DNA of 64,000 bases, from the NCBI GenBank assembly GCA_013289985.1, contig JABCYW010000001.1, positions 79,772-143,771 on the forward strand, written 5' to 3'. The notes beneath the pieces were generated by a model. It did no database searches and was not told the DNA's origin. It was given only the letters and a program-made list of their open reading frames with translations. The stretch comes from Betaproteobacteria bacterium. Lineage in GTDB: Bacteria > Pseudomonadota > Gammaproteobacteria > Burkholderiales > Burkholderiaceae_C. Below are positions 4,543 to 57,932 of this stretch, piece by piece. A program made the position numbers and the translations under genes. Position 1 is the stretch's first letter, and every line of letters begins with the position of its first letter.

Positions 4543-4551
4543 TTGTCCACA
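4543..4551 (+). promoter_or_regulatory. DnaA box variant (TTGTCCACA) abutting the dnaA start codon
   Basis: ttgtccaca sits immediately before the ATG at 4552. This is the classic position for dnaA autoregulation. Confidence 0.5.
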
Positions 4552-6006
4552 ATGTCCCTAGACCTTTGGCACCGGAGTTGCGAGCGCCTCGCCACCGAGT
4601 TGCCCGAACAGCAATTCAGCACCTGGATCCGGCCCTTGCCGCCCGCCGATTTCACCGACGTGGGCGACGGCACGGTGGCGCTCGTGCGCGTGCCCAACCG
4701 CTTCAAGCTCGACTGGATCCGCTCGCAATACGGCTCGCGCATCGAGTCGGTGCTCACCGAACTCGCCGGCAAGCCGGTGCGCCTCGAGCTGGCGCTCGCG
4801 CCGCGCGAGGCGCCGGCCCCCGGCCACGCCCACGTGCCCACCGGCAGCGGCTTCATCACCAGCAATCCGCCGCAGCGCATCGGCGCCGTGTTCGAGCAGG
4901 CGCTGGCCAACGCGCCGACGAACGGCCATGCCGCGGCGAGCGCGCCCGCGCAGCCGCGGCCCATGCACATCGCGCCGGCCATGAACTCGCACCGGCTCAA
5001 CCCGGCGCTCACCTTCGACACGCTGGTGGCCGGCCGCGCCAACCAGATGGCCCGCACCGCGGCGCTGCACGTGGCCGGCGCGCCTGGCGCCATGTACAAC
5101 CCGCTGTTCGTCTACGGCGGCGTGGGCCTGGGCAAGACCCACCTGGTGCACGCCGTGGGCAACCAGCTGCTCAAGGACAAGCCCGACGCCCGCGTGCTGT
5201 ACCTGCACGCCGAGCAGTTCATCTCCGACGTCGTCAAGAACTACCAGCGCAAGACCTTCGACGAACTGAAGGCCAAGTACCACTCGCTGGACCTGCTGCT
5301 GATCGACGACGTGCAGTTCTTCGCCGGCAAGGAACGCACGCAGGAAGAATTCTTCAATGCGTTCGAGGCGCTGCTGTCGCGCCGCGCGCACATCATCATG
5401 ACGAGCGACACCTATCCCAAGGGTCTGGCCGACATCGATGAACGCCTCACCAGCCGCTTCGACTCCGGCCTGACGGTGGCCATCGAGCCGCCCGAGCTGG
5501 AGATGCGCGTGGCCATCCTGATCCGCAAGGCCGAAGGCGAGCAGGCGCAGATGCCCGAGGAAGTGGCGTTCTTCATCGCCAAGAACGTGCGCGCCAACGT
5601 GCGCGAGCTCGAGGGCGCGCTGCGCAAGGTGCTGGCCTACTCGCGCTTCTCGCAGAAGGACATCAACATCGCCCTGGCGCGCGAGGCGCTCAAGGACCTG
5701 CTGTCCATCCAGAACCGCCAGATCTCCGTCGAGAACATCCAGAAGACGGTGGCCGATTTCTACAAGATCAAGGTGGCCGACATGTACAGCAAGAAGCGCC
5801 CGGCGAGCATCGCCCGCCCGCGCCAGATCGCCATGTACCTGGCCAAGGAGCTCACCCAGAAGAGCCTGCCCGAGATCGGCGAGCTCTTTGGCGGCCGCGA
5901 CCACACCACCGTGCTGCACGCCGTGCGCAAGATCGGCGGCGAGCGGCAGAAGAACACCGAACTGAACCAGCAACTCCACGTCCTGGAACAGACCCTGAAG
6001 GGATGA
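4552..6006 (+). CDS. dnaA: chromosomal replication initiator DnaA
   Basis: Walker [10 protein letters not shown], an AAA+ core, and a C-terminal DNA-binding domain (RDHTTVLHA). The ORF track begins at the TTG at 4543; the ATG at 4552 (MSLDLW) is preferred. Confidence 0.95.
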
Positions 6007-7490: not shown

Positions 7491-10103
<2,613 letters not shown>

Positions 10104-10116
10104 TGTGTCGGGTGAC

Positions 10117-10190
10117 GTAGGGCGCCGAAGTAATTGCGATTGGCGCCAAAGCTGTGCGACTGGGCGCCACAGTTCTTGCGATCGCCCTAC
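10117..10190. repeat. Left copy of an about 73-bp imperfect direct repeat made of about 21-bp TGCGAYT-containing units and bracketed by the inverted ends GTAGGGCG/CGCCCTAC
   Basis: gtagggcgccgaagtaattgcgattggcgccaaagctgtgcgactgggcgccacagttcttgcgatcgccctac. By eye it is about 75% identical to the block at 13295-13367. Confidence 0.5.
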
Positions 10191-10457
10191 GAAGCCTCTG
10201 TCAACTGAACAATCGTTGACGGCTGCGGGCGGTTGGACAGCAGCAGCGAGCCCGGCGACTGCGCGCACCGAGGCCACACGCGACCTATGCAATATCAGTA
10301 GCTTGCAGCACTCGCGGCAACGGCAGCTGCAGCCGAAGCAGCGATCGCTTCCCATCCGCCCTGCGCTTTCTTCAACACCTCAACGTCCGTTGGTGCAACC
10401 AGCCAGTGCATGTGGCATTCCAACGCACAACGCTCCTCCGACAATCTAGACTGAAAA

Positions 10458-11162
10458 CTACAGGCCAGAACTGCTCGTGCGTTCGCCCTCAACCTGCTCC
10501 TTCGGCAACCCCACAGTGAGGTAAGGAGCAATGAGTCTCGCGACCTCTTTGCAGCTCCGCACAAAGTCCACAAGCTGTTCCTTCGACGGTTGCCAGCCCA
10601 TGATGGACGTGATGGTCTCATTGCGCACAGCCAGCAACCCGAACACCGCATCAAGCAGCTTGGGCTCAAGCAGCTTCCATTCCGCAGCTTTCCGAAACAG
10701 CTTGTCTGCTGTCATCACATGAGATCCGACAGGTGCACGCATGGAGACGACTTGGCGAAGTAGTTCCTCCACCTCTATCCAAGCACGCTCAATGATCGAC
10801 AGCGGAGGAACGCCGGCCTGAACTTGTTCCGCCGCAGACAGCGAGTATTCGTCTGCGTAGTGCAGGCGATCAAAGTCTTCGGGAATGGAGACAGGACGAG
10901 GAATGTCATCGGAAGCAGCATCCCTTGTCTTCGCCCTCACCATGCGCTTCTTACGCAGCGCGTCGAGATCGAGCCGCACCCGATCCATCGTCTTTTCAAA
11001 CGTGAGCTTCAGTTTGCCTTTGTCATACTCGGCACTCTTGATGCGGTCAACAAGGCGCACGAGGGCACCGCGCACGATCACGATCACAACGCCACCCAGC
11101 AGGATGACGACGGCCGGCCAGCGCACCGCTTCAATGATCTTCGCCAACCCCGCAGCATCCAT
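10458..11162 (-). CDS. Hypothetical membrane-anchored protein, paralog 1 (N-terminal TM, charged linker, C-terminal helical domain with an AW.EVE...GWQP signature)
   Basis: The 234-aa product has a TM segment WPAVVILLGGVVIVIV. It is paralogous along its whole length to the upstream ORF 11247-12125 (shared LIDRVK after the TM, AW(I/Q)EV(E/R), (S/T)I(M/S)GWQP). It lies in the lower-GC block. Confidence 0.6.
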   Translation of the reverse strand: MDAAGLAKIIEAVRWPAVVILLGGVVIVIVRGALVRLVDRIKSAEYDKGKLKLTFEKTMDRVRLDLDALRKKRMVRAKTRDAASDDIPRPVSIPEDFDRLHYADEYSLSAAEQVQAGVPPLSIIERAWIEVEELLRQVVSMRAPVGSHVMTADKLFRKAAEWKLLEPKLLDAVFGLLAVRNETITSIMGWQPSKEQLVDFVRSCKEVARLIAPYLTVGLPKEQVEGERTSSSGL

Positions 11163-11246
11163 CCTAGCTCTCCCGATCCCTTTGCCTCGAAGTCTCGCAC
11201 GCCGTCGAGGCCAAACTACAGCCCAGCGCTTGTAGTGCGTTCACCT

Positions 11247-12044
11247 TCAATCGGCTACCTTCGGTAGACCCAGCGCAAGGTGCATGCTCAATAGTGTCAC
11301 GACCTCCCCCGCGTTCTGCACGTATTCCAAGACTTGAACCTGGTTCGGCTGCCAACCAATCGTGCTCATCGCATCGTTGTGGATCATCATGAGTTCAACG
11401 ACAGCTTTGTAGAGCGAACCCGTGAGCTTGCCTGCTCGATGTGCACGCCCAACAAGCTGCTCATCCGGAATGCCATCGAGCGACCACCAGTCCGTCGCAG
11501 TCTTCTCCAATCCGAGCACTTTGTAGAGCATCCCACGCACCTCTTGCCAAGCGTGGTGAATCACAACGGGTGGAGCATTCTTGTAGACCTCCATCATGCG
11601 GAGCCAGTTGCGCTGGTCATCCTCGTAGTCCTTCATGCTGAACATGGGAGTGCCAGGCAGAGGCATCGCGGCATCTCTGAAGCGATAGGGCTTTGGCTGG
11701 CCTTGCGCAGCAGCTTCAGTATCAACCTCTTCGATCATGCGCCGGACGCCCTTGTCCGTTGCCTCCGGCTTGACATCCTCGACAGTTGGTTTCTGCTTCT
11801 CAACCTCTTCCTTGGCAACCGCGACGTTCTCCTTGACTTCGCCCAGTTGGTCGGCGATGTCAACGGTGACGCCTTCTTTGCTTGCACTGACCTTCTTGAC
11901 GCGATCGATGAGCGCACCGATCTTGGCCTTCTGCTGGACGAGGAAGACGACCACCACGAGCGGCCAAGCAAACGCAGCAATGAGCGTGACAAGGTGCCCA
12001 GTCTGCTTCTCGATGAAGCTCAGTATCAGCTCAGCCCATTCCAT
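11247..12044 (-). CDS. Hypothetical membrane-anchored protein, paralog 2
   Basis: TM segment LVTLIAAFAWPLVVVVFLV, a coiled/charged linker, and a C-terminal domain homologous to paralog 1. The ORF track starts at 12125; the start chosen here is the Met (MEWAEL) at 12044 just before the TM. The true start is uncertain. Confidence 0.55.
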   Translation of the reverse strand: MEWAELILSFIEKQTGHLVTLIAAFAWPLVVVVFLVQQKAKIGALIDRVKKVSASKEGVTVDIADQLGEVKENVAVAKEEVEKQKPTVEDVKPEATDKGVRRMIEEVDTEAAAQGQPKPYRFRDAAMPLPGTPMFSMKDYEDDQRNWLRMMEVYKNAPPVVIHHAWQEVRGMLYKVLGLEKTATDWWSLDGIPDEQLVGRAHRAGKLTGSLYKAVVELMMIHNDAMSTIGWQPNQVQVLEYVQNAGEVVTLLSMHLALGLPKVAD

Positions 12045-12322
12045 GCCCTGCTCCTCTTCTTCTTTGCCGCGAAGTCTCCCACACCAGCGACTGCAGCGCA
12101 CGAAGCTCATTGCCTGCGCCGCCATCGTCCTGCTCTCTGCTCACGTCCAGGCATACGTTTTCATTTTGCTGCGAGCGGCAGACCTCATTCCGCGCTCATT
12201 GATACAGCCACCCCTATTTCGGGTGGTTGCGCGAAGCGCCCGGCATCGGCCCAATGATCGGTCGCGCGCCACTTCAGCATTGAATTGCGTAGCCCGTCCA
12301 CCTACACGGTACTGACCGCCAC

Positions 12323-12817
12323 ATGTCGAACGTTCTCAAGGACATCTACAAGTCCAAGGGTAAGCTGGAAAACTACTTTGACGACAAAACGCCAGTTGCT
12401 CTCTGGCGTGGTCAAAAGCGAGATCTGATCAAGAAAAAGCGGGGGGGCCTCTACCCTGAGCTTACCGGCTTCGTGCGTGGCGACGGAACGTTTCGCATTC
12501 CCGACGTCGATGTCTTCGAGCGCGAGAGCGACGGCGTCACGATGGTCCGCGGTTGTCGGTGTGTTGCAGGCGAAGGCGACTACCGCGGTGTGTCGACGTT
12601 CGACGTCATGCCTGATCTTGGCAAATCATTCATGTACTTCCGTATCCCGGGTGGCACGGCAATCCCGGAAGCGCTTGCGGTGACCAAGGACACGTTCAAC
12701 CGACGCTTCGGTGGTTACCATTACACCGTTGCGCCGAAAGACGACATGCCGTTGAGCCTCTTCCTTGTCTGGCTGGGTGCGATCGAGGCGAGCCTGAAGG
12801 CTGAAGGAGGCAAGTGA
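12323..12817 (+). CDS. Hypothetical 164-aa protein, candidate toxin/effector of a two-gene module
   Basis: An ORF in the lower-GC block with no confidently recognised domain. It contains FERES and GGYHYTVAPKDD motifs. Its stop overlaps the start of the following 87-aa ORF as ATGA. Confidence 0.5.
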   Translation: MSNVLKDIYKSKGKLENYFDDKTPVALWRGQKRDLIKKKRGGLYPELTGFVRGDGTFRIPDVDVFERESDGVTMVRGCRCVAGEGDYRGVSTFDVMPDLGKSFMYFRIPGGTAIPEALAVTKDTFNRRFGGYHYTVAPKDDMPLSLFLVWLGAIEASLKAEGGK

Positions 12818-13077
12818 TGACCGAACCGATCCGATTGACCGACCAGGCAGTGATCACCGCTGCCCGGGCCTTGATCATGGAAAACAAGCGCTGTGCGGCG
12901 AAGCTCAAGGACGACTCGCTTTCAGACGAACAGGCCGAGTATTTCGGTGACTACGTCCAGTTGTTGGACGCAGCGATGGGCGAGATCGAGGCGCTCTACG
13001 TCGAGCGTCAGGCGACGAATCGGCACATGGGGTCGTTCGACGCGCTCTACGAGTCGGTCTTGCTCGACAAGGACTGA
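12814..13077 (+). CDS. Hypothetical 87-aa acidic helical protein, candidate immunity/antitoxin partner
   Basis: It has a 4-nt overlap with the upstream ORF. It is small, acidic and predicted all-helical (DEQAEYFGDYVQLLDAAMGEIEALYVERQ), which is typical of cognate immunity proteins. Confidence 0.45.
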   Translation: MMTEPIRLTDQAVITAARALIMENKRCAAKLKDDSLSDEQAEYFGDYVQLLDAAMGEIEALYVERQATNRHMGSFDALYESVLLDKD

Positions 13078-13113: not shown

Positions 13114-13150
13114 GCGCCCTGGGCTCGACGGAGGGCGCGGCGGGATATTT
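13114..13150 (+). terminator. Candidate intrinsic terminator after the two-gene module
   Basis: Inverted repeat GCGCCCT-(11 nt)-AGGGCGC at 13114-13138 is followed by the AT-rich stretch gggatatttcattta. Confidence 0.3.
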
Positions 13151-13280
13151 CATTTATCGTGTCACACCCGTCGGAACCTGTCAGTAATCGTGTCACTTCT
13201 CTTGGACAGGCGTGACACGGAAAGTGAAAAAGGCGAGCAAAATCAATGGTGTTCATTTCACTTTTCGTGTCACCCGACAT
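13147..13280. repeat. Array of four CGTGTCAC-core repeats (three direct, one inverted) with interleaved inverted repeats, in an AT-richer non-coding stretch
   Basis: tcgtgtcac at 13157-65, 13188-96 and 13265-73; gtgacacg at 13212-19. Repeats 1 and 3 share an extended TTCATTT..TCGTGTCACMCCCG context. Interleaved inverted pairs cctgtc/gacagg and cgtgtcac/gtgacacg follow an A-B-A'-B' arrangement. Confidence 0.5.
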
Positions 13281-13294
13281 GAGTTGTACGCCGC

Positions 13295-13367
13295 GTAGGG
13301 CGCCAGAGTAAATGCGACTCGCGCCACAGTTCTGCGACTGAACGGCGCTAGTTGGTGCGACTACCGG
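13295..13367. repeat. Right copy of the about 73-bp imperfect direct repeat (TGCGACT units)
   Basis: gtagggcgccagagtaaatgcgactcgcgccacagttctgcgactgaacggcgctagttggtgcgactaccgg. It aligns with 10117-10190 and ends 1 nt before the ATG at 13368. Confidence 0.45.
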
Positions 13368-15080: not shown

Positions 15081-16211
15081 TCAATGGCCCGATGCGGCGC
15101 TCTTGATCGGCGCCGCGGCATTGCGCTCGAGCCACGCGCGTTGCACCGGGTCGATCAGCATCCAGCCGCGGCCGTCGGTCCTGCGCTCCAGCATCCCCTT
15201 GGCCGCAAGCGCTTCGAGCGCGCGGCTGATGCTGGAGGGCGCGACCCTGGCGCCCAGCTGAGCGGCGGCCCAGACGACGCTGTCGGCGGCGGTCGGCGGC
15301 CTGTCCTCGAACACCAGGCGCAGCGCGACCTGCTGCAGGCCGGTGAGGCCGCGCCAGGTGGCCGACCACTTGTTGGGCGAGTGCTGGCTGAGCATCTCGT
15401 CGAGCGCGCGATCCAGCGTCCAGGCCGGGTTGGCCATCACCAGGCTCACGGCATGCAGGAACGGCTCGGGCTGGGTGCCCAGCTGCTGGAAGGTCTCGTG
15501 GGCCAGCACCTGGTTCAGGTCGCGCCGCGTCGCCTCGTGGAACTTGCGCGCCACGAAGCCGATGAAATCCAGGCCTAGCGGCTCGTAGCCCTCGGTCTTC
15601 GCGAAGCCGTACAGCGGCGTGTTGGTGCGCGAGAACATGTCCAGCAGCTGCACGTCGGACGAGCCGGAGAAGATCGCGCCGATGCGCTTGTCGGCCTGCG
15701 TGAGCGCGGCGCGCAGCGACGCCGAGATCTGCGGGCCGTTCTTCGCCGACGCGATCGACTGGAATTCGTCGAAGACCAGCACCACGTCATGCGTCGTCTC
15801 CTCCAGGATCTGGGTGAGCAGGCTGTCGAGCATCAGCGCGGGCCGGTCCGGCGTCTGGCGCTTCGGCGGATCGCCGAGGTCGATGCTCGCGCCCATCACG
15901 CCCAGCCGCTTCACCGGCGTGCTGCCCGTGCGCTTCATGCCCCGGGGCTGCACGCTGAGGCCTTCCAGCGCCTTCTGCAGCGCGTAGTTGATGCCTTGCA
16001 GCGGGTCGTCCATGTCCATCCAGCAGTCGATGTAGACGGCGATGGCGCCGCGCGACTGCACGTACGGGATGACCTCGTCGCGCAGCAGCGTGGTCTTGCC
16101 GGTCTGGCGCGGGCCGAACATCGCGATGCGCTCGTGCGCGAGCAGGCGCTTGCCCAGCGCGGTGGCCAGCGGCGCGCGGGCGTGGTGCCACGCCTGGGTC
16201 AGGTCGGACAT
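15081..16211 (-). CDS. AAA+ superfamily ATP-binding protein (COG1373-like) with a C-terminal winged helix
   Basis: Walker A GPRQTGKTT, Walker B VLVFDEF, and a C-terminal wHTH-like region. Confidence 0.8.
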   Translation of the reverse strand: MSDLTQAWHHARAPLATALGKRLLAHERIAMFGPRQTGKTTLLRDEVIPYVQSRGAIAVYIDCWMDMDDPLQGINYALQKALEGLSVQPRGMKRTGSTPVKRLGVMGASIDLGDPPKRQTPDRPALMLDSLLTQILEETTHDVVLVFDEFQSIASAKNGPQISASLRAALTQADKRIGAIFSGSSDVQLLDMFSRTNTPLYGFAKTEGYEPLGLDFIGFVARKFHEATRRDLNQVLAHETFQQLGTQPEPFLHAVSLVMANPAWTLDRALDEMLSQHSPNKWSATWRGLTGLQQVALRLVFEDRPPTAADSVVWAAAQLGARVAPSSISRALEALAAKGMLERRTDGRGWMLIDPVQRAWLERNAAAPIKSAASGH

Positions 16212-53860: not shown

Positions 53861-54384
53861 TCGGCACCCCAAGAGTCAATCAGCTTCAGTAAGCGCTTCC
53901 ATCGCGTGAGCGATTTTCCCGGAACTGGATGGGCTGATTGTGGAGGGTCTTGGGTGAACGATGGCTTTGGCCATCGTTTCAAATTAATCTTTCAAAGCGA
54001 GTGAATCTTCAAGCGGTCGAGGTACCTGAAGTTCACCAACCACCGCGCGGAGTTCCGTTCGTTGTCGAAGCATCACCACCGACAACAAATTTAAATTTAT
54101 CGAAGCACAGCTCAACCATTGGCACGAATTCGGAGTGCGTGTCGTCTGCACTCCGCGTCTTAGGGAGCGACAACACCTTCAACGCCGATACGATCTTCAG
54201 AATGGAATTCATGTCTATCTACCTGCTAAATGCTGTTGTTCGCCCCTGTAGAAGCATTGAAACAGCTAGCAGTCCGATCGGACACTGTCAGGTCTTACAG
54301 GGTCGCAGCCACGCATGGGGCCTTGACCGGTAGGCCGAGGCACGGCCTGAAGGCCCGCAGATTGGGCACCAACCCGAAGGATTT

Positions 54385-55119
54385 CTAGTTCAGCAGCCCG
54401 AGACGGATGGCCTTCAGCACCGCTTGGTGCTTGTTCACGCAAGCGAGCTTGTGCATGGAATTTTGCAGGTGCAAGACTGCCGTACGCTCGGAAATGCTCA
54501 TGATGGTGCCGACTTCCCAGGCGGTCTTCCCTTCCATCGTCCAACGCAGGGCTTCGAGTTCGCGTGGAGTGAGCGTTGGCGCGTCCAATCGCTTGGGCGG
54601 GTTCGGCGTGAAGAGCCTAAAGGCGGCGTCCTGTGCATGGACGGCAAACAGCTGCAGGTCAGCCACGATGCGCGTGACGTTGCGCATGTTCTTGGGAAGG
54701 GGCCTGTCCCGATCCACGCCTATGAAGAAGTGGCGTCCACCCGGCAAGTGCATGGCCATCGCTATTCCTGTGCCGTAGCCGTGCTGGGACTGAAATTCCC
54801 ATAGATTTCCCAGACCTCGCGAAACGTAAGTCTCCTGATCCCAAATGATCGGCACTGCCGACTTCTTGCAGTGCTGCATGACCGGATCATGCTGCGCGCC
54901 AAAGTCGAGATCGGAATACCACTCCATGTACTCAGCAGGAGTGTTGTTCACAGTCTGGAACTCAGTGTTCGAGGCCGAATGATCGGTGACTACTGCAGCC
55001 GTTACGAACTTGAAGTCGAGGTGCTCCGCGAAGCTGACTACCTGCGCGGAAAAATCCTCGATGGTCGTGGTCTCCAAGATCGAGAGGTGGCTCCCCTGAA
55101 GCATGCGCGCTGCCATCAC
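54385..55119 (-). CDS. LuxR-family autoinducer-binding transcriptional regulator, solo 1
   Basis: The autoinducer-binding domain has the conserved W..Y..DP..W..G pattern (EWYSDLDFGAQHDPV, PIIWDQ, GYGTGIA). The C-terminal LuxR HTH reads LTPRELEALRWTMEGKTAWEVGTIMSISERTAVLHLQNSMHKL. Confidence 0.8.
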   Translation of the reverse strand: MMAARMLQGSHLSILETTTIEDFSAQVVSFAEHLDFKFVTAAVVTDHSASNTEFQTVNNTPAEYMEWYSDLDFGAQHDPVMQHCKKSAVPIIWDQETYVSRGLGNLWEFQSQHGYGTGIAMAMHLPGGRHFFIGVDRDRPLPKNMRNVTRIVADLQLFAVHAQDAAFRLFTPNPPKRLDAPTLTPRELEALRWTMEGKTAWEVGTIMSISERTAVLHLQNSMHKLACVNKHQAVLKAIRLGLLN

Positions 55120-55244
55120 TGACCTCGGTTCACGTCATGCGTGCAAGTGCTTCGCGTCCGGCAAGTCCATGACCGCGAAGCGCGGGCGCGACAAATTGGG
55201 CCTTCCCAGAAGGACAAGCGGGTGTGGGGGGAGACATGGTGCAC

Positions 55245-55265
55245 CCTGACAAGTTTGACAGCTAG
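55245..55265. promoter_or_regulatory. lux-box-like imperfect palindrome CTG-N10-CAG
   Basis: ccCTGacaagtttgaCAGctag lies about 130 bp upstream of solo 1. Related copies sit at 55578-55597 and 54285-54300 (CTGtcaggtcttaCAG). Confidence 0.3.
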
Positions 55266-55756
55266 TCCAAGCAACGCAATATCTCCAGACTCCGGGGCAT
55301 GCTGACAAGGACATCAACCACAGCCATGCTTGCTGCCCCAATCTTGCCATCGCCGTTGGCGCCCTATTCTTGGCCACCCGTATTTTGGCAGGCAAACCTT
55401 CGACGAACGCCCAAATTTGTACACCTCTCCACTCATGTGACGCGTGCCGGCGGGCAAAAGCAACCATGCTGCGGCAGTACGCTCTGGGGCGGCTTCTCGG
55501 CCGATGGCGATGCCGGCTTGGCTTGGGACTGGGTTGAAATCGAGCAAGGAGTTGTAGCCATGCGCGACCCTATGTCCCTGATGACAAATTTACAGCTAGT
55601 TGCAGAAAACGGTGAGGTGCTCCAGCCGATCGCTGCAGCGTTGCACTTCAATCAGTTCGTACGCCGGCTGCCTTGGCAAGATGAAGTTCGCAGGTTGCTC
55701 CACGCTGCTTAGTACCAAGAGATCAGTTTTTCAATGCGCTAAACCGCGAATCGCGG

Positions 55757-56494
55757 CTAATCGCAGCGGACTAAGCCTAGTCGTATTGCCCGCAAAACTG
55801 CTTCATATTTTGTCCCGCAGGCAAGCTTTCTCATAGCGGATTGCAACCGTTCAGATGCGACTTCTTCCGTTGTCGACATCAGCTCTGCCACGCTTTTCGT
55901 TATCTTGCCGTCCATTGTCCATCGAAGTGCGTCAATTTCTCGGGACGTAAGGGCAGATCCTTCATCCGATGAGGTGACCGGCGGCAGGCATAGATCAAAA
56001 GCTGCTGCCTGGGAGTACGCAGCAAAAGACCGAAAGTCGTCTAGTGCTCGGTGGTTGTAGGTACTTCGCGAGTTATGCGCCTTGCTGCCGCTTAGACCAA
56101 TCATGTAGTGCCGGCCCTTGCGATAATGCATCGCAGTTGCGATGCCTGTTTTGTAGCCATGTGCAGCTTGATAGTCCCAAAGGTCTCTTACTCCAGCGGC
56201 TGAATAGGTATCGACATTCCAAACGATTGGCGACGACCGATTTTTGCAATGCTGACTCACCGGATCTAATTTACCTTTCTCTAAATTGTGAAAATCGTCA
56301 AGAAATTCTTGAGGTGCGTTCGTTATGGTCTGAAATTCTGTGAACGTCTCTGAGTGATCTGTAACTACCAACGCAGCAGCGAACTCATAGCCGAGATGAT
56401 TGGCGAAGCTGACTAGCTGCGCGAGAAATGCCGCCTCGGACTTGCTCTCCAGAACGTCAAGACATCTGTTTTTCATAGCGAGTTCCATATGCAT
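55757..56494 (-). CDS. LuxR-family autoinducer-binding transcriptional regulator, solo 2, paralogous to solo 1
   Basis: The two align along their whole length (LAQLVSFANHLGYEF / AQVVSFAEHLDFKF; ...DPVSQHCKNRSSPIVW...; C-terminal HTH LTSREIDALRWTMDGK). Confidence 0.8.
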   Translation of the reverse strand: MHMELAMKNRCLDVLESKSEAAFLAQLVSFANHLGYEFAAALVVTDHSETFTEFQTITNAPQEFLDDFHNLEKGKLDPVSQHCKNRSSPIVWNVDTYSAAGVRDLWDYQAAHGYKTGIATAMHYRKGRHYMIGLSGSKAHNSRSTYNHRALDDFRSFAAYSQAAAFDLCLPPVTSSDEGSALTSREIDALRWTMDGKITKSVAELMSTTEEVASERLQSAMRKLACGTKYEAVLRAIRLGLVRCD

Positions 56495-56759
56495 CGGCCC
56501 TTCTCAGATGTGAGGGTGCAAGTTAGCGACCTCGAACGGAAGACGGAGGTGAAATTGCACTTCGGCGACTGTTCCCCTGTGCTTCTCCCGCGATTCGCGC
56601 TCAACACGCAGTGGCGGGTACCTGCGAAGCTGCGTTGAATCGGCAGTGCTCGACCAGAGTAGCTCAAGAAGAACACTAACATCCTCCGCGCCGCCACTGC
56701 ATCGCCAGGTTAGGGTATCGAAGCCCCTGGCTCCCTTGGCGAATGCGACGCTCTCGGTC

Positions 56760-57932
56760 CTACTGCGCCGCCCGCCTCGTCAACTGCCGACTCACGAACA
56801 TCAACGCCGCCACCGTCAGCACGGCGCAGATCAGCAGCCCGGGGGCGACATCGAGTGCGCTGATGGGGGCGTTCTTCAGGACGCGGTTCATCAGGGTGGA
56901 CTGTGCCAGCGCGGGCACCCACAGGTTCCAGGCGGACTCGCCTTCCTGGTTGAACAGGCTCACCATGGGCGTCAAGGCGACGGCGAGCACGAGCACGACG
57001 GTGTTGGCCTGCGCTTCCTTGTGGGTCTTGCAGCGGATGGCGATGGCCATCATCAGGGCGGACAGGGCCGCGGCGAGCGGGGCGAGCAGGCCGATGAACC
57101 AGGCGGCCTCGACCCAGCCGAATCGGAACAGCGCGGCGAGCGACTCGCTGCGCAGCAGGCTCTGCGCGGGCAGGAAGCTCATGCACGACAGCACTGCGAT
57201 CAGCAGGCCCAGCGCGAACACCGCGCCCCACTTGCCCACCACCAGGGCCATGCGCGCGGCGGGCGTGGCGAGCAGCGGCTCCAGCGATCCGCGTTCGCGC
57301 TCGCCGGCGGTGGTGTCGAGGGCGGCGTTGAGGGCGCCGTACAGGACGGCCATCATCACGAACATGGGCACCATGCTGGTGAGCTGGGCGGCGCGCGAGG
57401 CGTTGTCGGCGATGTCGTGCTCGTCGACGCTGGACACGTTCATCACACCGGGTGCGACGCCGCGGGCGATCAGGCGCAGCGAGGCCTGTTCCTGCCCGAA
57501 GCCCTGCAGCAGCCGCTCGATCGCGCCGACACCGGCCTGCGCGCGGCCGTTGGCGCTGCTGTAGACCAGCTGGATCCGCGGCGCCTGGCCGTGGGCGAGG
57601 TCGTCCTCGAAATTCGCGGGCACGATCACGACCGGATCGCCCAGCTTGCTGTCCTTGAGCTGGCTCTCCCAGTCGGCGGGGGCCGTCCTGACGATGAAGG
57701 TCTGGCGCTCGAGGTAGTTGCGCAGCGTGGGCGCGGCGTCCAGGCCGATCGCGACGATCTCGCGCGCCTCGGCACGCTTCTCGTACTTGCCCATCAGCGA
57801 CGACAGCAGCACGAGCATCAGCGGCCCGATGGCGATCGAGGTGAAGAACACCACCATCAAGGTGCGACGGTCGCGCAGCGCGTCCTTGAGCTCCTTGACG
57901 AACACCGTCCACATCGCGGCTGGATTGCTCAT
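56760..57932 (-). CDS. ABC-2 type transporter permease
   Basis: A 390-aa product with an N-terminal TM, a large extracytoplasmic loop and 5 C-terminal TM segments. Its start overlaps the ATPase stop as ATGA. Confidence 0.8.
   Translation of the reverse strand: MSNPAAMWTVFVKELKDALRDRRTLMVVFFTSIAIGPLMLVLLSSLMGKYEKRAEAREIVAIGLDAAPTLRNYLERQTFIVRTAPADWESQLKDSKLGDPVVIVPANFEDDLAHGQAPRIQLVYSSANGRAQAGVGAIERLLQGFGQEQASLRLIARGVAPGVMNVSSVDEHDIADNASRAAQLTSMVPMFVMMAVLYGALNAALDTTAGERERGSLEPLLATPAARMALVVGKWGAVFALGLLIAVLSCMSFLPAQSLLRSESLAALFRFGWVEAAWFIGLLAPLAAALSALMMAIAIRCKTHKEAQANTVVLVLAVALTPMVSLFNQEGESAWNLWVPALAQSTLMNRVLKNAPISALDVAPGLLICAVLTVAALMFVSRQLTRRAAQ

Follow-up and report, generated by a model that had tools for sequence, protein, structure and literature searches.

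What are the two adjacent minus-strand genes, here called A and B, that lie some 10 kb into a 64,000-nt stretch of DNA from a Betaproteobacteria bacterium (assembly GCA_013289985.1, contig JABCYW010000001.1, positions 79,772 to 143,771; hereafter the window)? Each encodes a protein with one N-terminal transmembrane (TM) helix and a C-terminal domain of about 100 residues. A first-pass annotation made by a model from the sequence could not place this domain in any family it knew, stated that it is not HEPN, and took the pair for possible defence proteins. Here we show that the domain is of the HEPN fold and homologous to DUF4145-like HEPN domains, and that A and B are very probably tandem paralogues within a described group of membrane HEPN proteins, in which their catalytic motif has degenerated. 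Our favoured reading of the locus as a whole, to which we give a probability of roughly 0.6, is that it represents a conflict cassette of the membrane, non-catalytic and in decay, in which members of a rare subclade of that group have lost the partner with which they once formed the cassette. The features that bear on the two proteins are these.

Positions 10458-11162, minus strand: gene A, 234 aa, with the same architecture as gene B (homologues P0001-P0004).
Positions 11247-12044, minus strand: gene B, 265 aa, with a single TM helix of the WP type (containing Trp-Pro), a charged linker and a degenerate HEPN domain (homologues P0005-P0008).
Positions 11073-11120, minus strand: TM helix core of gene A (residues 15-30), with the invariant W15-P16 at its start; the best 19-mer is residues 17-35, with a mean hydropathy of 2.75.
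Positions 11937-11993, minus strand: TM helix of B, residues 18-36, containing AWP, with a mean hydropathy of 2.77.
Positions 10509-10808, minus strand: HEPN-fold domain of A, residues ~119-218, four helices.
Positions 11268-11576, minus strand: HEPN-fold domain of B, residues ~157-259, which aligns with the domain of A and is included in the close-clade profile.
Positions 10608-10625, minus strand: RNETIT of A, at the position of the HEPN motif R-N-x3-H with His replaced by Thr, as placed by column alignment with canonical relatives having LRN..[AV]H.
Positions 11364-11381, minus strand: HNDAMS of B, at the corresponding motif position; here His stands in place of Arg, and Ser in place of His.
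Positions 10587-10598, minus strand: GWQP of A, just after the degenerate HEPN motif; the equivalent in B is at 11346-11357.

Compared with Pfam, NCBIfam, PADLOC and PHROGs, A and B give nothing above threshold, and a sequence-profile search of the PDB returned marginal matches only, to HepN toxins at E values of 0.5-0.8. The link to HEPN is transitive, leading from a profile of the clade to canonical relatives and from these to DUF4145 and other HEPN families. An exhaustive HMMER search of 1.84 billion protein cluster representatives with a profile of seven clade members, and these only, gave 444 clusters at E ≤ 1e-3, 19 at ≤ 1e-10 and 10 at ≤ 1e-30; the 444 matches are mostly 180-250 aa long and matched along the whole profile. 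Canonical relatives are reached with E values down to 1e-9 over the full length and 8.7e-9 with the domain alone, hhalign gives 99.0%, and in a 33-member alignment the distant relatives show L-R-N-x-[AV]-x-H exactly over RNETIT of A and HNDAMS of B. When A, B, their close homologues and the best hits are taken together, a set of 156 sequences, the complete R-N-x3-H is present at this column in 106. Pfam DUF4145 matches 12 of the 33 aligned members, its gathering score of 23.1 bits being passed by P0062, P0065 and P0046 (29.8, 28.2 and 27.0 bits, respectively); aligned members also match HEPN_RiboL-PSP, HepT-like, HepT-like_2 and HEPN_Swt1, families that all belong to HEPN. Members of the clade itself lie under the detection limit of DUF4145, yet are homologous to the relatives that match it.

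The AlphaFold2 (AF2) model of A is confident solely in the four C-terminal helices, and the domain of A and B has the compact four-helix up-and-down fold of the HEPN clan (Pfam CL0291). The catalytic motif of the clan, Rx4-6H, is missing, and no close-clade member has the His. HEPN families without the motif are recognised as non-catalytic and are regarded either as RNA-binding or as structural modules (Anantharaman et al., 2013; PMC3710099), so that its loss speaks against nuclease activity and not against homology. The first-pass annotation was thus correct about the motif and mistaken about fold and ancestry, since A and B fit the WP-TM DUF4145-like group of HEPN proteins (PMC3710099), and the domain that it could not assign has a place among known families.

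Three groups of membrane-associated bacterial HEPN proteins have been listed (Anantharaman et al., 2013, Biol Direct 8:15; PMC3710099). The combination of a WP-type TM helix with a DUF4145-like HEPN domain was already described there, with V. cholerae gi 153825856 as an example, and the cytoplasmic HEPN domains were predicted to process RNA at the inner membrane face upon surface stimuli. A and B share with the members of this WP-TM group a length of 180-270 aa, a TM helix at the N-terminus that carries the invariant WP, and a linker leading to a C-terminal HEPN domain of ~100 aa. The WP is present as W15-P16 in A and within AWP in B, and in 149 of the 156 aligned family sequences; the overlap with DUF4145 is found through the relatives. 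Each protein has one strongly hydrophobic 19-mer (Kyte-Doolittle mean 2.75 in A and 2.77 in B, the next best window being below 1.2), and the charge after the TM helix is +2 and +4, against 0 and -2 before it, in A and B respectively. On account of this positive-inside bias both proteins are predicted to have the N-terminus outside and the C-terminal domain in the cytoplasm. Membership of the SLATT group, which the first-pass annotation had also discounted, was rejected, as there is one hydrophobic segment per protein against two TM helices and no Pfam SLATT match. Where A and B depart from canonical WP-TM HEPN proteins is in the degenerate R-N-x3-H, a [GD]WxP motif and a translationally coupled TM partner, all of which mark the subclade to which they belong.

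A and B are 24% identical across ~200 residues (BLASTP E = 1e-13) and share the blocks LVDRIK/LIDRVK, AW.EV, RNETITSIMGWQP/HNDAMSTIGWQP, V.FV/YV and GLPK, so the first-pass description of tandem paralogous single-TM open reading frames (ORFs) at this position stands, as do all the conserved C-terminal blocks that it listed. The duplication took in the flanks of the genes, their leaders (repeat D5) and their 3' tails (D4) both being homologous. The length of B had been left at 265 to 292 aa. The ~30 nt upstream of its ATG at 12044 are homologous to the non-coding leader of A, the ATG is preceded by GAGGAG, and P0005-P0008 all begin at the equivalent Met. B therefore most likely starts at 12044 and has 265 aa, and the start at 12125, which would give 292 aa, was rejected. 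At its other end B has lost a segment that is still legible in the spacer between the two genes.

Positions 11213-11246, minus strand: former C-terminal tail of B, EGERTTSAGL*, seen as direct repeat D4 and by three-frame translation.

After a 1-nt shift this tail is out of frame in the B-A spacer, and A retains its own, EGERTSSSGL*. In P0020, a clade member of 356 aa from a 30-kb Logan/ENA contig, a 120-residue N-terminal extension is present the N-terminus is of the B type and the C-terminus, EGER tail included, of the A type; this points to recombination between A and B types or to a mis-called start. The ratio of nonsynonymous to synonymous substitutions (dN/dS) is 0.19-0.24 for both gene types in comparisons with homologues of 41-97% identity, and ~0.2 for B against L005 and L009. 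By this sequence measure both gene types are under purifying selection, and A and B are thus real genes and not chance ORFs.

Does the HEPN domain of these proteins still cut RNA? The ~20 closest clusters (P0001-P0008 and P0020-P0030) are all without the His, mostly with Thr or Ser in its place, and have R, H or Y at the Arg position. Three to four residues downstream of the motif, all subclade members except the fragment P0029 carry [GD]W[QSTNE]P, which is absent from canonical relatives; within the 14-sequence close clade W190 and P192 are invariant. As both catalytic residues have been lost and purifying selection has continued, we infer that the HEPN domain of the subclade is non-catalytic. 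A subclade with lost catalytic residues, the [GD]WxP motif and a coupled partner is new here. It is also rare: a word-indexed search of 5.8 billion protein clusters gave four clusters (at 90% identity) each for A and B, which come from metagenomes or from the source genome, the named ones being called "hypothetical protein". No relative of B was found by a scan of the genome contigs of 185,579 species genomes, and no match to A by tblastn in plasmid or phage records.

A different answer would be that A and B are still membrane-bound RNases with a non-canonical catalytic set, for example in an A:B heterodimer to which A contributes Arg180 and B the His at its Arg position, and that a signal causes them to degrade RNA at the membrane. 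In HEPN proteins the active site is composite and formed by a dimer (PMC3710099; bioRxiv 10.1101/2021.11.02.466367), the motif Asn is largely retained, A keeps its Arg, the domain is under strong purifying selection, and A- and B-type genes stand in tandem at two independent loci, the window and, in the opposite order, L015. However, the canonical His is missing from every clade member, the Arg position is R, H or Y even within the A type (P0004, P0021, P0022, P0024), which argues against catalytic constraint, and most loci have one HEPN gene with a partner, so that a heterodimer is no general solution. We regard residual RNase activity of this kind as decidedly improbable, and a non-catalytic HEPN domain remains our preferred interpretation.

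The partner is the product of a separate, undescribed gene. Directly downstream of P0002 (A-type), P0007 and P0008 (both B-type), on independent contigs, lies a gene whose start overlaps the stop of the HEPN gene and whose product, of 250-263 aa, has the N-terminus MRWNPRRRQVT. The family is likewise very rare, with 11 clusters, and has no Pfam or PADLOC match. An alignment of 10 sequences shows M1, R2, W3, N4, R7 and a W-N-S-L-E motif to be invariant and three Cys to be invariant or nearly so. There is one TM helix (KSPWNSLE...TP), preceded by a charge of +4, a bias opposite to that of A and B (N-in/C-out) which would place the Cys-containing domain in the periplasm; the basic, highly conserved MRWNPRR peptide is correspondingly predicted to be cytoplasmic. 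In an AF2 model (predicted local distance difference test score, pLDDT, 78) the TM helix runs into a four-helix bundle, the fold matching generic four-helix bundles such as talin, PsbQ, designed bundles and periplasmic sensor domains; these matches were not used for assignment.

The first-pass annotation had asked whether homologues always occur as pairs. The A-B tandem is not the conserved unit, because at most homologue loci a single HEPN gene is coupled to the partner, a different downstream gene that survives in the window as a deletion remnant. Two separate HEPN-plus-partner modules are found on one metagenomic contig (L001, 1329-2833 and 4221-6660), with ~0.8 kb between both genes in the second module, a space that holds two small plus-strand ORFs. 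At L018 the partner is truncated at codon 38, and at L015 an insertion sequence (IS) with a transposase of the IS256 type (Pfam Transposase_mut) interrupts, after 21 codons, a B-type gene that comes after an A-type gene, the order of the A and B types being reversed relative to the window. A scan of genome contigs with the partner alignment matched one Nitrospira metagenome-assembled genome.

Distant metagenomic proteins that resemble the partner in the KSPWNSLE motif only have no WP-TM HEPN gene upstream. At two loci such a distant partner-like TM protein is followed by a soluble protein with a HEPN-type motif, in one case R..GN..AHE together with a Zn-ribbon (L026, 1988-2710) and in the other FRNGLLH (L030, 842-1462), a hint that the link between the TM family and HEPN predates the subclade studied. 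No partner is adjacent to any of three canonical WP-TM HEPN relatives that were checked: one is beside a Dam-like methylase, one near another DUF4145 gene and the third on an uninformative 1.2-kb contig. At L047 (2-685), 4 nt separate P0062 (DUF4145, intact RNxxxH) from a Dam-like N6-adenine methyltransferase upstream of it, which has a DPPY motif; this fits the reported association of DUF4145 with restriction-modification systems.

What became of the partner in the window can be read between A and gyrB.

Positions 10295-10438, minus strand: partner pseudogene, with the Shine-Dalgarno sequence GGAGGAG at 10432-10438, a GTG start at 10426-10428, the codons V-R-W-N, and the last ~41 codons at 10298-10420.
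Position ~10417/10418, minus strand: deletion junction of the pseudogene, after which the tail ...ECHMHWLVAPTDVEVLKKAQGGWEAIAASAAAAVAASAASY* is in another reading frame.

The remnant was missed by tblastn of the window with partner proteins and recovered only by the hidden Markov model (HMM) of the family with filters off. Among 1131 six-frame fragments of the window the top match is the minus-strand fragment ending at 10298 (E = 8.5e-5), which covers HMM positions 216-251 of 252 and reaches within one residue of the stop codon. A close relative, L045, is 97.8% identical to the window over 10418-12152, and the similarity ends at 10418. After its A gene, L045 reads GGAGGAG-N-GTG CGT TGG AAC CCA AGA AGG and onwards, giving (M)RWNPRRRQVTSVVYVQGTKKEADPKSPWNSL, with the 5' end of the partner kept. 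In the window and in L046, GTGCGTTGGAA is followed without a break by TGCCACATGC, so that the last ~41 codons follow codon 4 in the wrong frame; the family terminus ...SAASH is retained in L046. As judged from these alignments, the partner has been lost in the window through the deletion of roughly 0.6 kb from its interior, by which the frame was not kept. The window copy is thus probably a partly decayed cassette in which both HEPN genes are still intact, and in practice it consists of hypothetical proteins of a known superfamily on a small mobile island, a local system minus one component.

How far has this decay gone? One possibility is that the cassette here is a dead remnant, functionless since the partner was lost, with A and B intact only through the recency of the deletion. 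The state of the partner, reduced to a start codon and the last ~41 codons out of frame where the 97.8%-identical relative keeps its 5' end, would agree with this, as would the loss of the C-terminal tail of B by a 1-nt frameshift, a dN/dS of 0.64 for B against a 97%-identical relative, a value that comes from very few changes, and the decay seen elsewhere in the truncated partner of L018 and the interrupted B-type gene of L015. Set against it, the same deletion allele occurs in several independent samples (L013, L014 and L046) with both ORFs intact, and dN/dS for A against L045 is 0.19. We consider a dead remnant unlikely. As it concerns only the present state of the window copy, it is also compatible with our favoured reading of the locus as a decaying conflict cassette.

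The settings in which the homologues are found bear on what such a cassette might do. Their neighbours include SIR2_2 (a faint Pfam match) with DUF87, Mrr_cat, RecD2-like with DUF3701, GmrSD_N, HEPN_RiboL-PSP/MAE_28990, ApeA_NTD1, lambda Ea47, PaaA2, IS66 and a transposase of the IS256 type (Pfam Transposase_mut). Such surroundings are typical of a defence island or mobile region, and they make a role in biological conflict plausible. A few independent contigs support the view that the cassette is mobile and that it has a dedicated partner, probably facing the periplasm, which is deleted here.

A model that would accommodate these observations is as follows. A and B would be tandem-duplicated inner-membrane proteins, each with a very short periplasmic N-terminus, a WP TM helix, a charged helical linker and a cytoplasmic HEPN domain. 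The cassette would consist of one HEPN gene, or two in tandem, typically coupled in translation to the downstream partner, and would move among variable loci rich in defence genes or IS elements. The HEPN domains would no longer cut RNA and could instead act at the inner membrane face as an oligomerising or a ligand- or RNA-binding module, which might be coupled, through the TM helices or the N-terminal peptide of the partner, to the periplasmic domain of the latter. The output could be growth arrest or membrane perturbation during attack by phages or other attack on the envelope, by analogy with the pore of Csx28. That the cassette works in this way, as a non-catalytic module acting on the membrane, is a tentative proposal to which we give somewhat less than even odds.

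Csx28, the small accessory protein of type VI-B2 CRISPR-Cas13b, has an N-terminal TM helix and a cytoplasmic four-helix domain with a divergent HEPN motif; it acts without nuclease activity, and its octamers, built through a non-canonical face-to-back HEPN interface, are pores that depolarise the membrane upon activation during infection (bioRxiv 10.1101/2021.11.02.466367). As a functional analogy for a non-catalytic HEPN protein with a TM anchor it is the best at hand, without any claim of membership: no sequence or structural link between Csx28 and A or B was found, and there are no cas genes, as in the Csx28-type association with Cas13b of type VI-B, among the neighbours in the window or at any listed homologue locus. 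Taken further, the analogy would make the degenerate WP-TM HEPN protein and its Cys-rich partner an unrecognised envelope-sensing abortive-infection system of two or three genes, in which the bundle of the partner might detect phage and the pseudo-HEPN domain, gated by the partner peptide, might form a Csx28-like pore. This is speculative and rather improbable as a whole. If true, it would be a CRISPR-independent counterpart of the Csx28 mechanism.

The two-gene HEPN-TM system of phage-inducible chromosomal islands, of which Fillol-Salom et al. 2022 is said to be the source, reportedly consists of a soluble HEPN protein and a separate TM protein. The present cassette would resemble it as a small mobile anti-phage module in which a HEPN protein works with a separate TM protein, and differs in that here the HEPN protein is itself anchored in the membrane and carries a degenerate motif. 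A, B, their relatives and the partner match no PADLOC model, and PADLOC v2.0.0 may not include models for the island system, which is mentioned as a defence system in PMC12948488. The HEPN toxins of HepT/MntA (HEPN-MNT) toxin-antitoxin systems and prophage HepS are soluble and have an intact Rx4-6H, and the antitoxin that goes with HepT is a nucleotidyltransferase; A and B show none of these features. Membership of the HEPN-MNT systems was rejected, with no nucleotidyltransferase gene identified at the A-B locus or at the homologue loci and a degenerate motif.

Several points weigh against our favoured reading. The loss of catalysis is deduced from the loss of the motif alone; the Asn is largely retained, and together with Thr/Ser and GWQP it could conceivably form an alternative active site. 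The periplasmic siting of the partner is derived from the charge bias and the conserved Cys only, and the folds that it matches are generic ones. Outside the HEPN domain the AF2 model has low confidence (mean pLDDT 59). A defence role is guilt by association from a handful of metagenomic contigs, and A, B and their close homologues have no PADLOC, PHROG or NCBIfam match. Finally, as the partner is deleted, A and B may here do nothing, or something different.

The domain that could not be placed is now defined as that of a membrane HEPN lineage which has shed its catalytic residues, stayed under purifying selection and gained a membrane partner of its own. For experiments, the intact cassettes found elsewhere are better targets than the decayed copy in the window. 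If an intact cassette were to defend against phages, it would be, after Csx28, a second non-nucleolytic TM-HEPN effector, and one independent of CRISPR, and the 2013 prediction of "stimulus-dependent" membrane HEPN proteins would gain a tractable two-gene model.

How did the two genes come to lie where they do? The window opens with dnaA (4543-6006), dnaN and gyrB (7497-10103), at a guanine-plus-cytosine (GC) content of ~65-68%, and directly 3' of these A and B lie inside a segment of 58% GC at ~10.1-14 kb, against ~65-75% in the surroundings. On the minus strand ORF B was listed as 11247-12125 (11247-12044 from Met28) and ORF A as 10458-11162. The plus strand carries, divergently from B, a toxin-like pair at 12323-13077, of which the 164-aa product matches Pfam ADPRTs_Tse2 (E = 6.5e-11) and an ORF of 87 aa follows with a 4-nt overlap; the gene of a Pr6Pr membrane protein comes next. 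The Tse2-like gene and the 87-aa ORF look like a toxin/immunity pair. The genes near A and B are thus gyrB, the Tse2-like toxin, the Pr6Pr membrane protein, a GATase and an AAA ATPase. A direct repeat brackets part of this segment.

Positions 10116-10181, plus strand: left copy of a direct repeat of ~66 nt, ~80% identical to the right copy, with a D2 core of 47 nt (83%).
Positions 13294-13360: right copy of the same repeat.

The left copy lies immediately after the gyrB stop, and the two copies enclose exactly A, B and the toxin pair in a 3.2-kb block of 58% GC, which suggests that this block was inserted as one unit downstream of gyrB. No further copy of the 32-nt core of the repeat is present within the window when ≤3 mismatches are allowed. 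The ~66-nt repeat could be an insertion-site duplication.

The common island raises the question of whether A and B serve the toxin, as accessory, immunity or delivery factors of the Tse2-like ADP-ribosyltransferase pair. Their divergent adjacency within the same repeat-flanked 3.2-kb block would fit, and an unrelated JGI contig carries two partner-family genes, a weak ADPRTs_Tse2 gene and a downstream 72-aa ORF. Yet at L045 the B-A-partner cassette abuts an IS transposase, which takes the place of the Tse2-like toxin upstream of B, similarity to the window stopping ~108 nt upstream of B; no Tse2-like gene is found at E ≤ 1e-3 near the other homologues (L001-L044), and the toxin already has its own overlapping small ORF, the usual immunity arrangement. 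A role as toxin accessories is therefore very improbable. The first-pass annotation had used the toxin-like pair as a clue to function, and this falls away, since the adjacency is not conserved and, with the 97.8%-identical copy beside an IS transposase, is circumstantial. Its broader suggestion of a defence-type pair in an island survives in part: the low-GC island is there and a role in conflict is plausible from the neighbourhoods of homologues, and the tandem pair is not the unit that is conserved.

The position beside dnaA-dnaN-gyrB would suit ordinary housekeeping proteins of the envelope, for instance DUF948-like proteins or stress or division factors, and the TM helix and linker of B give a sub-threshold DUF948 match (E = 0.0025, 18 bits against a cutoff of 37) that we judged generic. 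This reading is countered by extreme rarity, with the 4+4 clusters and the absences from species genomes (B) and from plasmid and phage records (A) given above, by the low-GC repeat-flanked insertion and the variable contexts elsewhere, and by the HEPN fold, and it is so improbable that we give it hardly any weight. A decaying conflict cassette is the reading that we retain.

Three further features of the window were noted in passing. Between the small ORF and the Pr6Pr gene, in non-coding DNA, are three 28-nt direct repeats (13138-13165, 13169-13196 and 13246-13273), each ending in TCGTGTCAC, which could be iteron-like or operator-like sites. A second block of low GC, at 54001-57000 (56% against ~70%), is probably another horizontally acquired segment. 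Just beyond the low-GC block that holds A and B, at 15081-16211 on the minus strand, is the gene of an AAA-type ATPase with a C-terminal region resembling a winged helix-turn-helix, which has weak PADLOC matches to mad8 (E = 9.4e-7) and PDC-S01 and may be a further defence-related gene.

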